A DNA stretch of 64,000 nucleotides, taken from Archangium sp. GTDB taxonomy: Bacteria; Myxococcota; Myxococcia; Myxococcales; Myxococcaceae. The number at the start of each line of letters is the position of its first letter. The stretch's first letter is position 1. The notes beneath the pieces were generated by a model that was not told the DNA's origin, ran no database searches, and was given only the letters and a program-made list of their open reading frames with translations. Below, piece after piece: positions 33,382 to 36,393 of the stretch. A program made the translations under genes and the position numbers. The DNA lies in assembly GCA_047600485.1 (NCBI GenBank), contig JASGKS010000001.1:6784259-6848258 (forward strand), written 5' to 3'.

Positions 33382-34035
33382 GTGGACGACCTCGCGCTCG
33401 CTCGCGCCTGCCTCGACGGAGACACCGCCGCGCTCGGCCAACTCGAGACCCTGGTGAGCGTCGAGGTCCGCCGCGCCGTCTCTCCGCTCGACCACACCGG
33501 AGTGCTCGTCGACGAAGTCACTCAGCTCGTCCGCGAACGCCTGCTCGTCGAAAAGAAGCTCGCTGAATTCTCCGGCGAAGGCTCACTCGCCGGCTGGCTC
33601 CGCGCGGTCGCAGTGCGCGTCGCCCTGAACGCGATGCGACCGCAGGCGCGCGAAGAACTCGTCTCGCAGCTCCCTGACGCGCCGCTGGCCGACCCCGACC
33701 CCGAGCTCGCGCTCTTGCGCGCGCGCCACCGCGAAGCGTTTCGCGCCGCCTTCGCCGAAGCGCTGCAAGTCCTCTCTCCGCGCGACCGCACGATTCTGCG
33801 CCTCACGTCCATCGACGGGCTCAGCCTCGCGCGCGTGGGCCAGATGTACGGAAAGGACGCCTCCACCGTCTCCCGCTGGCTCGCCGCGAGCCGCGACGTG
33901 CTGCTTCAGCGCACCCGCGCCAGTCTGGCGCAGACGCTCCAGCTCAGTGACTCCGCGCTCGATTCGGTGATGCGCGCCGCCGACAGTGAATTGCACCTGA
34001 GCATCGCGAGATTGCTCCAGAGTTCGGTCACTTGA
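33382..34035 (+). CDS. ECF (sigma-70 family) RNA polymerase sigma factor
   Basis: Region 2 (LVDEVTQLVRERLL) and region 4 HTH (ILRLTSIDGLSLARVGQMYGKDASTVSRWL). GTG start assumed. Divergent from the MVP operon. Confidence 0.65.
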   Translation: MDDLALARACLDGDTAALGQLETLVSVEVRRAVSPLDHTGVLVDEVTQLVRERLLVEKKLAEFSGEGSLAGWLRAVAVRVALNAMRPQAREELVSQLPDAPLADPDPELALLRARHREAFRAAFAEALQVLSPRDRTILRLTSIDGLSLARVGQMYGKDASTVSRWLAASRDVLLQRTRASLAQTLQLSDSALDSVMRAADSELHLSIARLLQSSVT

Positions 34036-34062
34036 GAAAAATGCAAGGCACCGCCGCAGCCC

Positions 34063-36393
34063 GTGTCCTCTCATCAGGAGGTAGTCATGTGCCCTGATGA
34101 AAACACCCTGATGAAGTTCGCGAGCGGTGCCGCCGGAGAATTGCCGGCGCTGGAAGCCCACCTCGATGGCTGCGAGTCGTGCCGTCGCGCGGTGGCCGCC
34201 GCAGCTTCTGAACAAACCCTGCCCGCGACCCTGGCGACGCATGCGTTGACTCCGGGTCAGCGCGTCGGCCGTTACGAAATCGAGCGCGAGCTCGGCCGCG
34301 GCGGCATGGGCGTCGTGTACCAGGCGCGCGACGTCACGCTCGACCGCCGCGTCGCGCTCAAGCTCCTGCACCAGCGTCGTGACGAAGCCGCGCAGGCGCG
34401 ACTGCTCCGCGAAGCGCAGGTGATGGCGAAGCTCACGCACCCCAACGTGGTGCCGGTGTTCGAGCTCGGCGAGTGGAAGGGCGAGGTCTACCTCGTCATG
34501 GAGCTGGTGAACGGCGTCACGCTCGAGCAGTGGTTGAAGCGCGAGAAGCACCGCCGCTCCGACATCATTCACGCCTTCGTGCAGGCCGGCCGCGGGCTCG
34601 CCGCCGCGCACGCCGCCGGAGTGGTGCACCGCGACTTCAAGCCCGCCAACGTGCTCGTCGGTCTCGACAACCGCGTGCGCGTGACCGACTTCGGTCTCTC
34701 GCGTCCCGGCCCCGCGCTCGAGCTGCCCGCCACCGACTCCGCCGTCGTCACGCGCGACGGAGCCATCGTCGGCACGCTCGCGTACATGGCACCCGAGCAG
34801 CTCGACGGAAAAGCGGCCGACGAGCGCAGCGACCAGTTCGCGTTCTGCGTGTCGCTCGTCGAAGCGCTCACCGGCCAGCGCCCCTTCGAAGGAGAGAACT
34901 GGGCGACGCTCGCGCAGGGTCTCTCGAAGAAGCCGCGGCTCGGAGGCATTCCGGTCGCGCTCCGCGGCGTGCTCCGCAGAGGCCTCGAGCGTGATTCGGC
35001 GCGCCGCTACACGTCACTCACGTCACTGCTCAACGCCATCGAGCGCTCGCAGCAGCTGGGCTGGAAGTCGGTGGGCGCGACGGCGGCGGTCGCCGCTGCG
35101 GTGGGGCTCCTCTTCGCGTTCCCCGGAAAGCTGCAGCCCACGCTGCAGCGACTCACTGCCTCCGAAGACCTGGTGCCCATCGTCACCGCAGACAGGGACC
35201 TCGAGGAGGGCACGGTCATCAGCATGGAGATGCTGACCCAGCGCGTGATGCTCTCGCACAACGTCACCTCGTCCATCGTGAAGCCGGACAGCGTCAGCTA
35301 CATCGTCGGGCAGAAGTTGCTCGTACCCGTGCAGAAGGGCGACGCGCTGCTGTGGAGTCAGTTCCAGACGACGCAGCAAGCCGCCGCGGAAGCGGAAGTG
35401 CAGGTGGTCGTCGCCGCCGTCGACATTCGCGAGAACACGCTCGTGACGATGGAGATGATGAAGCAGATCAGCATGCCCGCGCGCTTCGTCACCTCGTCGG
35501 TCGTGAAGCCCGACAGCGCGTCGTACATCATGGGCCAGAAGATTCGCGTGCCGGTGCAGGCGGGCGACCTGCTGCTGTGGTCGCAGTTCGAGCAGATGCC
35601 CGAGAACGGCGTGCGCGTGTTGGTCGCGGTGAGAGATTTGCCCGAGGGCTCGGTGCTCGACCCGTCGCGCATCGCCGAGGCGACCGTGTCCGAGAACCTC
35701 GCCACCTCGTCAGTGATGCGACCCAAGCAGAGCGCGCACGTGTGGGCGCACACGCTGAAGAAGCCGATGAAGAAGGGCGACCTGTTGCTGTGGTCCAACC
35801 TCTCGGGCGAAACCATCAGCGTCGACGACGGCGTGCCGATGGACTCGGTGCTCGACGTGGTGAAGAAGAACATGTCGAAGCTCGCGCCGTGCCTGCAGAA
35901 GCCGCCGTCGCTGAACACCGTTCGCGAGGCCAACCTGGTGTGGAGCGTGCGCGCCGATGGTTCCGCGTTCGACGTGCACCTCGACAAGCTCGCGCTGCAG
36001 AACAGTGAATTCGAGGCGTGTCTGTCGAAGGCCGTGGGGGCGCTGAAGTTCCCCAAAGGCGCGCGCGCGACGTGGGACGCGGCGATGCAGCTCACGTTCG
36101 CTTCGGTCGCCAAGGAGAAGCTCGAGCCCGCTGACGTGATGAACGTCGTCGTCGAGAAGAAGCAGATGCTGGCGATTTGCGGAGCGCAGGCAACTCCGGG
36201 CACGTCGGGACAGGTGGTGCTCGAGTGGAACGTGCAACCCGACGGCAAGCCGTTCGACGTCCACGTCGCGACCGAATCGGAGCAGCTCAAAGACACGCCC
36301 ATGGCGCTGTGCTTCGTCGACGTGGTGAAGCGCATGCAGTTCCCCGAGCACGTGGTGCCGGCTGAACCGATTCGCTTCCCGTTCATGTTCTGA
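34063..36393 (+). CDS. Ser/Thr protein kinase with an N-terminal zf-HC2 (anti-sigma-like) motif, three SAF/CpaB-like repeats and a duplicated AgmX/TonB-C-like C-terminal domain
   Basis: N-terminal CPDENTLMKFASGAAGELPALEAHLDGCESCRR. Kinase motifs (GRGGMGVVYQA...HRDFKPANVL...DFGLS...YMAPEQ). Three ~90-aa repeats ending ...LLWSQF. C-terminal duplicated PDGKPFDVH domain. Confidence 0.8.
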   Translation: MSSHQEVVMCPDENTLMKFASGAAGELPALEAHLDGCESCRRAVAAAASEQTLPATLATHALTPGQRVGRYEIERELGRGGMGVVYQARDVTLDRRVALKLLHQRRDEAAQARLLREAQVMAKLTHPNVVPVFELGEWKGEVYLVMELVNGVTLEQWLKREKHRRSDIIHAFVQAGRGLAAAHAAGVVHRDFKPANVLVGLDNRVRVTDFGLSRPGPALELPATDSAVVTRDGAIVGTLAYMAPEQLDGKAADERSDQFAFCVSLVEALTGQRPFEGENWATLAQGLSKKPRLGGIPVALRGVLRRGLERDSARRYTSLTSLLNAIERSQQLGWKSVGATAAVAAAVGLLFAFPGKLQPTLQRLTASEDLVPIVTADRDLEEGTVISMEMLTQRVMLSHNVTSSIVKPDSVSYIVGQKLLVPVQKGDALLWSQFQTTQQAAAEAEVQVVVAAVDIRENTLVTMEMMKQISMPARFVTSSVVKPDSASYIMGQKIRVPVQAGDLLLWSQFEQMPENGVRVLVAVRDLPEGSVLDPSRIAEATVSENLATSSVMRPKQSAHVWAHTLKKPMKKGDLLLWSNLSGETISVDDGVPMDSVLDVVKKNMSKLAPCLQKPPSLNTVREANLVWSVRADGSAFDVHLDKLALQNSEFEACLSKAVGALKFPKGARATWDAAMQLTFASVAKEKLEPADVMNVVVEKKQMLAICGAQATPGTSGQVVLEWNVQPDGKPFDVHVATESEQLKDTPMALCFVDVVKRMQFPEHVVPAEPIRFPFMF

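Follow-up and report, generated by a model that had tools for sequence, protein, structure and literature searches.

A receptor Ser/Thr kinase of Archangium sp. with a predicted zinc-binding anti-sigma domain, encoded next to an ECF-like sigma factor

Analysis of a 64,000-nucleotide stretch of the Archangium sp. genome (contig JASGKS010000001.1, positions 6,784,259 to 6,848,258; G+C ~67%), referred to here as the window, identified two adjacent genes of the same strand whose products are most likely cognate partners forming a two-gene signalling module, as judged from their sequences and genomic context. The first encodes an extracytoplasmic function (ECF)-like sigma factor and the second a receptor Ser/Thr kinase whose cytoplasmic N-terminus is predicted to be a zinc-binding anti-sigma (ZAS) domain. 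The domain identities and topology of these proteins, the integrity of the catalytic and zinc-ligand residues of the kinase, and the conservation of the pairing across related loci are established here. With slightly better than even confidence, we propose that the ZAS domain docks the sigma factor and that the activity of the kinase controls its release. An earlier sequence-only reading of the same DNA had suggested both that the kinase doubles as the anti-sigma factor and that a divergent operon for a major vault protein (MVP)-like protein may be a target of the sigma factor; the first part of this interpretation is backed by every in silico test run, and the second is not.

One line of evidence for an anti-sigma domain is the conservation of its putative zinc ligands. 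The N-terminal domain of the kinase (MCPDENTLMKFASGAAGELPALEAHLDGCESCRRAVAAAAS), separated by ~15 residues from the Hanks domain that follows, carries the ZAS ligand motif C/H-x(22-26)-H-x3-C-x2-C in the form C2-x22-H25-x3-C29-x2-C32. These four residues are the only invariant columns of the N-terminal region in alignments of 44 and of 58 homologues, and the arrangement C-x18-32-HxxxCxxC was found in 89 distinct N-termini among the best 120 kinase homologues. The zf-HC2 model (PF13490) is matched by 43 of 44 family members at E<0.1, the best at E=2.4e-7. A profile of the ZAS family compared with all Protein Data Bank (PDB) sequences matched six distinct ones: RslA (3hug_B, E=3.2e-5), M. xanthus DdvA (8rlz_A, 2.7e-3) and, more weakly, ChrR (two entries, ~0.05), RsiW (0.16) and the N-terminal residues 8-36 of a 991-aa chain deposited as 'CHAT domain-containing protein' (8rot_B, 0.066). 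All of the named matches (RslA, DdvA, ChrR and RsiW) are anti-sigma factors. An AlphaFold2 (AF2) model of residues 1-68 of the kinase (predicted local distance difference test score, pLDDT, 80) places helices at residues 5-12, 20-28 and 30-44 followed by a coil leading into the kinase N-lobe, a helical fold resembling that of solved anti-sigma domains. Taken at the level of the family, the assignment of the kinase N-terminus as a ZAS-type anti-sigma domain is well supported.

Recognition of the complete motif depends on the choice of start codon. The start of the kinase is ATG 34087, with an AGGAGG ribosome-binding site 5 nt before it, and not GTG 34063, where the listed open reading frame (ORF) begins. 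The public NCBI record of an identical kinase (P0001, from a metagenome-assembled genome of Archangium sp.) begins 8 codons later, at MKF; the late start omits the equivalent of window positions 34087-34110 and, with them, Cys2, the first zinc ligand, so that automated annotation hides the complete ZAS motif.

The remainder of the kinase largely conforms to what the sequence-only reading had described. The Ser/Thr kinase domain is indeed full, with all catalytic motifs intact: GRGGMG (70-75), the VALK lysine (K92), HRD (181-183, within HRDFKPAN), DFG (201-203) and APE (235-237, within MAPE). A lone strongly hydrophobic segment follows, and the kinase is a single-pass inner-membrane protein. 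On its periplasmic side, the three SAF repeats announced earlier were recovered as three stretches by the Pfam SAF model (E=3e-20), at a pitch of 71-76 aa in place of the ~90 aa first given; the CpaB model TIGR03177 scores 74.7 bits against a cut-off of 71, and the repeats have the beta-clip SAF fold in addition to the profile match. The duplicated AgmX/TonB-C-like domains were likewise confirmed, a domain search of the kinase C-terminus returning NF033768 (AgmX/PglI C-terminal domain) in two stretches with 69.3 bits (cut-off 40) and a fold like that of the TonB C-terminal domain. Together, the three SAF repeats and the two TonB/TolA-C-like domains make up a periplasmic part whose probable partner is a structure of the envelope or a component of the outer membrane. 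A second, unrelated Ser/Thr kinase of 914 aa is encoded at 49113-51857 (+), with a GAF domain before its C-terminal kinase domain. This protein lacks a ZAS motif, and its gene is not next to a sigma gene.

The gene upstream of the kinase, previously read as encoding an ECF sigma factor, was upheld as such. Its product scores 200.8 bits (cut-off 154.6) against NCBIfam TIGR03001 (Sig-70_gmx1, 'RNA polymerase sigma-70 factor, Myxococcales family 1'), the match covering profile positions 20-244, and 61.7 bits (cut-off 42.9) against the general ECF model TIGR02937 (sigma70-ECF), spanning both domains; it also lies above cut-off for Pfam Sigma70_r4 and Sigma70_r4_2, and the Pfam scan gave no match to Sigma70_r2. 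Residues 11-195 of a 15-member profile of the sigma family align to the solved ECF sigma factors AlgU (AlgU-like 8z6g_B), RpoE (1or7_A), SigH and M. tuberculosis SigE, with E-values that are modest (~1e-3 to 1e-4). Given these profile scores and the alignment to solved ECF sigma factors, the protein is classed by its sequence as a divergent, two-domain ECF-like sigma factor made of sigma2 and sigma4 only. Its GTG start fits a length of 217-224 aa in the nearest homologues and is the one called in a 94%-identical locus (L001), and the G+C content at third codon positions (GC3) in the sigma frame is 0.61 upstream of 33382 versus 0.84 downstream. A longer ORF beginning at 33142 or 33304 was rejected in view of this low upstream GC3 and of the coding-like character of the opposite strand. 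Most members of the sigma family (P0127-P0190) carry an additional N-terminal segment of 30-60 aa (...LA.HL....L.GADLLLA...); in the window's clade this segment, amounting to ~20-60 aa with respect to TIGR03001, is absent, and the corresponding DNA of the window is occupied by a small gene for a four-cysteine (Cys4) protein on the opposite strand.

Two regions of the sigma factor bear on how it may be regulated. Beyond sigma4 lies a family-conserved tail of ~32 aa (SALDSVMRAADSELHLSIARLL; window positions 33937-34032), of which S195, S202 and S207 are each conserved in at least 90% of 37 homologues; the tail could accept phosphate or bind a partner. In region 2.2 the motif reads LVDE, and a [DE][DE] pair is kept family-wide in an alignment whose indel placement leaves an uncertainty of 1-3 residues. 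A Ser/Thr located 2-3 residues upstream of LVDE (PLD[TS][ST]xxLVDE) is conserved in the closer homologues and lost in distant family members.

The association of the two genes extends well beyond the window. Scanning one genome per species with an alignment of the sigma family, together with exact-protein look-ups, yielded 28 loci. In 25 of these, a co-oriented gene for a protein with ZAS, kinase and SAF domains comes closely after the sigma gene; 20 distinct sigma/ZAS-kinase pairs were counted besides that of the window. ZAS-kinases endowed with other sensors, of the PF13629 pilus-N type (L029) or of a cytoplasmic TPR type (L030), also directly follow a sigma gene, and a genome may hold more than one pair (L004 and L029; L021 and L025). 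The one close kinase relative lacking the ZAS N-terminus that was checked (P0057) has no adjacent sigma gene. As far as gene order can tell, this pattern is typical of insulated sigma/anti-sigma pairs. Along with the invariant zinc ligands and the PDB matches, the constancy of gene order across paralogous pairs with different sensors and the non-ZAS relative devoid of a sigma gene argue for the kinase-as-anti-sigma architecture predicted earlier. Variations on the theme were also seen: three loci of a more distant clade (L023, L024 and L025; ~6990-7300) have a separate SAF-domain gene between the sigma and ZAS-kinase genes, and L029 has a stand-alone PF13629 gene in the same place. In these four loci the sensor module seems to have been duplicated as a free periplasmic protein.

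Table 1. Coordinates in the window of the sigma/ZAS-kinase module, its parts and the genes divergent from it
Feature	Position	Strand	Description
ECF-like sigma factor gene	33382..34035	+	217 aa, GTG start; matches to TIGR03001, TIGR02937 and Pfam Sigma70_r4
Parts of the sigma factor (approximate)			sigma2 ~aa 1-90; sigma4 ~aa 105-185; family-specific C-terminal tail aa 186-217
Spacer from sigma stop to kinase start	34036..34086	+	51 bp; AGGAGG ribosome-binding site at 34076-34081 (read from sequence)
Receptor Ser/Thr kinase gene	34087..36393	+	768 aa; order ZAS, kinase, transmembrane helix, SAF x3, AgmX/TonB-C-like x2
ZAS-type anti-sigma domain (predicted)	34090..34221	+	aa 2-45; zinc ligands C2, H25, C29, C32; helices 5-12, 20-28 and 30-44 predicted
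Hanks-type kinase domain	34270..35046	+	~aa 62-320; Pkinase E=2e-44
Sole transmembrane helix	35062..35127	+	aa 326-347; Kyte-Doolittle mean 1.84 over 19 residues, no other such stretch being strongly hydrophobic
Three tandem SAF (CpaB/RcpC/FlgA-like) repeats, periplasmic	35170..35805	+	aa 362-427, 438-502, 509-573
Two AgmX/PglI C-terminal domains, TonB/TolA C-terminal fold	35833..36390	+	aa 583-674, 679-768
Conserved 60-aa Cys4 protein gene (neighbour, not in module)	33172..33354	-	GTG start, GAGG ribosome-binding site; GC3 0.83
MVP-like gene, vault shoulder domain (neighbour, not in module)	30932..33070	-	MVP_shoulder E=1.6e-31
Genes following the MVP-like gene	30332-30922; 29544-30335	-	

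The sigma and kinase genes are probably co-transcribed. Downstream of them, at 36409-37200 (+) and starting 16 bp past the kinase stop, lies a gene for a 263-aa helical protein without family match. L001 and L006 likewise have this gene after that of the kinase, and in L002 it lies at a distance of ~4 kb; its product may be a third member of the operon. Farther on, the ORF at 37385-38707 (-) gave weak matches only, below Pfam cut-offs, and the GC skew reaches +0.147 at 36001-38000 versus at most ~0.07 (absolute) elsewhere in the window.

ECF sigma factors encoded beside Hanks kinases are a recognised class (ECF43, ECF59-62, ECF217, ECF267 and ECF283), typically without a co-encoded anti-sigma factor (PMC7826278). 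The pair described here resembles the ECF43-type pairs, EcfP-PknT of Vibrio parahaemolyticus and EcfK-PknS of Xanthomonas citri, in that the gene of an ECF-like sigma factor adjoins that of a Hanks receptor kinase which crosses the membrane once and bears a variable periplasmic sensor, a separate anti-sigma gene being absent; the adjacent kinase gene characteristic of ECF43 is there (51 bp downstream in the window, and in 25 of the 28 loci). It differs from them in that the kinase itself has a predicted zinc-binding anti-sigma domain, in that the sigma factor is a TIGR03001 member with a conserved C-terminal tail, and in that region 2.2 reads LVDE instead of STTA, i.e. without the replacement of DAED by uncharged Ser/Thr residues that marks ECF43. 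An unexplained stretch of 83 aa precedes the kinase domain of PknS and has not been described as a ZAS domain (PMC13147305). Membrane-bound ZAS anti-sigma factors are well known, including DdvA of M. xanthus (PMC6061681), and those of the RslA-SigL, RsiW-SigW, ChrR-SigE and DdvA-DdvS systems share with the window's kinase an N-terminal cytoplasmic helical domain with the C/H...HxxxCxxC motif, one transmembrane helix, a large extracytoplasmic sensor and a gene directly after that of the sigma factor. Unlike these proteins, the kinase has a complete Hanks domain between the anti-sigma domain and the transmembrane helix and three helices rather than four, and release would probably proceed through phosphorylation rather than proteolysis or oxidation. 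Control of a ZAS anti-sigma/ECF sigma complex by a Hanks kinase is otherwise known from M. tuberculosis PknB and its substrates RshA and RseA, where kinase and anti-sigma factor are separate proteins, whereas in the window one polypeptide would serve one sigma factor. SpoIIAB and RsbW provide no more than an analogy, that of one protein binding a sigma factor and having Ser kinase activity; they are soluble, of unrelated fold (GHKL versus Hanks plus ZAS), and their substrate is an anti-anti-sigma factor. Among the papers that could be searched and read, none was found to describe the fusion of a ZAS domain to a Hanks kinase, though curators may have noticed it before.

In the dock-and-release model that we favour, the ZAS domain would, at rest, tether the sigma factor to the membrane; sigma4 is the probable point of contact, on the model of helices I-III in classical anti-sigma domains such as those of RslA and RsiW. 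Docking would bring the remainder of the sigma factor beside the catalytic cleft, the kinase domain occupying the place of the missing helix IV and thereby facing sigma2. A signal from the envelope, perceived in the periplasm, would switch the kinase on, and phosphorylation of either the sigma factor or the kinase's own ZAS-kinase linker would free active sigma. Candidate acceptor residues are T39 (PLDHTG), S95 and the tail serines S195, S202 and S207 of the sigma factor, and, within a conserved TLP of the kinase linker, T44. A precedent exists in M. tuberculosis, where phosphorylation of the ZAS anti-sigma factors RshA and RseA by PknB leads to the release of their sigma factors (PMC8999054). 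What we infer in this scheme is that the sigma factor is bound, where phosphorylation takes place and in which direction it acts, what signal is perceived and which regulon responds.

Several observations weigh against this model. The zf-HC2 finger assigned by the sequence-only reading stands as a motif and at the level of the family, but the window protein taken alone falls under the gathering cut-off of 22.2 bits, scoring 15.6 bits at full length and 20.7 bits when only its N-terminus is compared. No phosphatase gene was found in a search of the neighbourhood of the pair. Classical class I anti-sigma domains clamp sigma2 with a fourth helix, and the AF2 model of the kinase N-terminus shows three; full inhibition is therefore not assured. 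Finally, the conserved Ser/Thr upstream of LVDE and the three tail serines make an activating phosphorylation of the sigma factor equally possible. The latter two points are also what commends an alternative explanation modelled on EcfP and EcfK, whereby the sigma factor is inactive until phosphorylated by the kinase for core RNA polymerase binding and the ZAS domain is a docking site without inhibitory role; ECF/Ser-Thr kinase pairs of Vibrio and Xanthomonas do operate in this way (PMC8999054, PMC13147305). EcfP and EcfK have uncharged STTA in region 2.2 in place of acidic DAED, and the charge is provided by phosphorylation (PMC8999054, PMC8103513). The LVDE motif of the window's sigma factor, in contrast, keeps two acidic residues, which argues against a purely phosphorylation-dependent contact with RNA polymerase of the EcfP type and favours sequestration. 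Given, in addition, that the upstream Ser/Thr is missing from the more distant family members and that ECF43-type systems have no need of a zinc-binding anti-sigma fold, we regard this explanation as unlikely. A very remote prospect, in our estimation, is that the zinc motif senses redox state or metal for the kinase, or helps it to dimerise, and never contacts the sigma factor, the two genes being merely co-expressed and the kinase having other substrates. ZAS motifs can serve as thiol switches, as in RsrA, and Hanks kinases usually have multiple substrates; yet such a role would account neither for the tight, orientation-conserved succession of sigma and ZAS-kinase genes across sensor types, the one checked non-ZAS relative being without an adjacent sigma gene, nor for a sequence and fold similarity that is specific to sigma-binding anti-sigma domains.

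A further proposal concerns the genes divergent from the module. The sequence-only reading had taken positions 33071-33381 to be an intergenic region across which the sigma gene and the MVP-like operon stand head-to-head, and had deduced that the operon may be a target of the sigma factor. ECF sigma factors often control neighbouring genes, and the proximity is shared by the window, L001 and L006. The region proved to be mostly coding, however, the conserved Cys4 gene filling most of it and leaving 27 bp between its start and that of the sigma gene. The ECF -35/-10 search recommended at the time came out negative, no GAAC-N15-18-CGT being present in 33071-33381 on either strand; across the whole window the 73 sites with this pattern are within chance expectation (60 +/- 8). 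No sigma70-like promoter was found when searched for alongside the ECF motif. An exhaustive search for bipartite motifs (5-mer, N15-18, 4-mer) upstream of 24 related sigma genes returned none shared by more than 7 sequences, versus 6-8 in shuffled controls, and a GGAAC at 33345-33349 is common to L001 only. Among the loci compared, L001 and L006, which are the two closest relatives, are alone in having the MVP cluster beside the sigma-kinase pair. In all other loci the pair occurs without it, including L002, which shares the wider neighbourhood (a GH1 gene, a guanylate cyclase, a PEGA protein, the small Cys4 gene and the gene downstream of the kinase). The MVP adjacency therefore looks, from this comparison, like a lineage-specific insertion offering no evidence for regulation, and a direct control of the MVP-like operon by the sigma factor is highly improbable. 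We note that 57303-60260 (+), ~24 kb from the MVP-like gene, encodes a protein of 985 aa in which a VIT ('vault protein inter-alpha-trypsin') domain is joined by a weak, sub-cut-off VWA-type match.

The small Cys4 protein itself (CxxC...C...C; pattern F..S.C..C.HLR.V....S.FL.C...KYPPQPV..C..F) has a family that comprises at least 138 representative clusters in a library of 1.8 billion proteins, and matched no Pfam or NCBIfam family when both libraries were scanned. L001 holds a 90%-identical copy for which a gene was called, and an indel just upstream fixes the start. Homologues are divergent from the sigma gene in L002, L003 and L007 as well, ~1.5 kb off. A functional tie to the module was considered and rejected, homologues being found elsewhere (L031-L033) with neither sigma nor kinase gene nearby.

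Sequestration by a ZAS domain and direct phosphorylation by a neighbouring Hanks kinase are two accepted means of controlling ECF sigma factors that have been treated as alternatives. In the system described here both control elements, as far as the sequences tell, reside in one polypeptide encoded beside its sigma factor, an arrangement conserved over many paralogous pairs. It is conceivable, and we advance this more tentatively than the docking model, that fusions of ZAS domains to Hanks kinases, together with TIGR03001 sigma factors, constitute a distinct mode of ECF regulation that has expanded in Myxococcota, one membrane protein acting as sensor, anti-sigma factor and sigma kinase while SAF, pilus-N, TPR and TonB-C sensors are swapped on a constant ZAS-kinase-sigma core. 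If the ZAS domain truly docks the sigma factor, this would explain how one-to-one kinase specificity is maintained in genomes with about a hundred kinases and dozens of sigma factors, and would provide a simple, testable model of sigma release by phosphorylation. The unexplained N-termini of other sigma-linked kinases, such as the 83-aa segment of PknS, would then merit re-examination.

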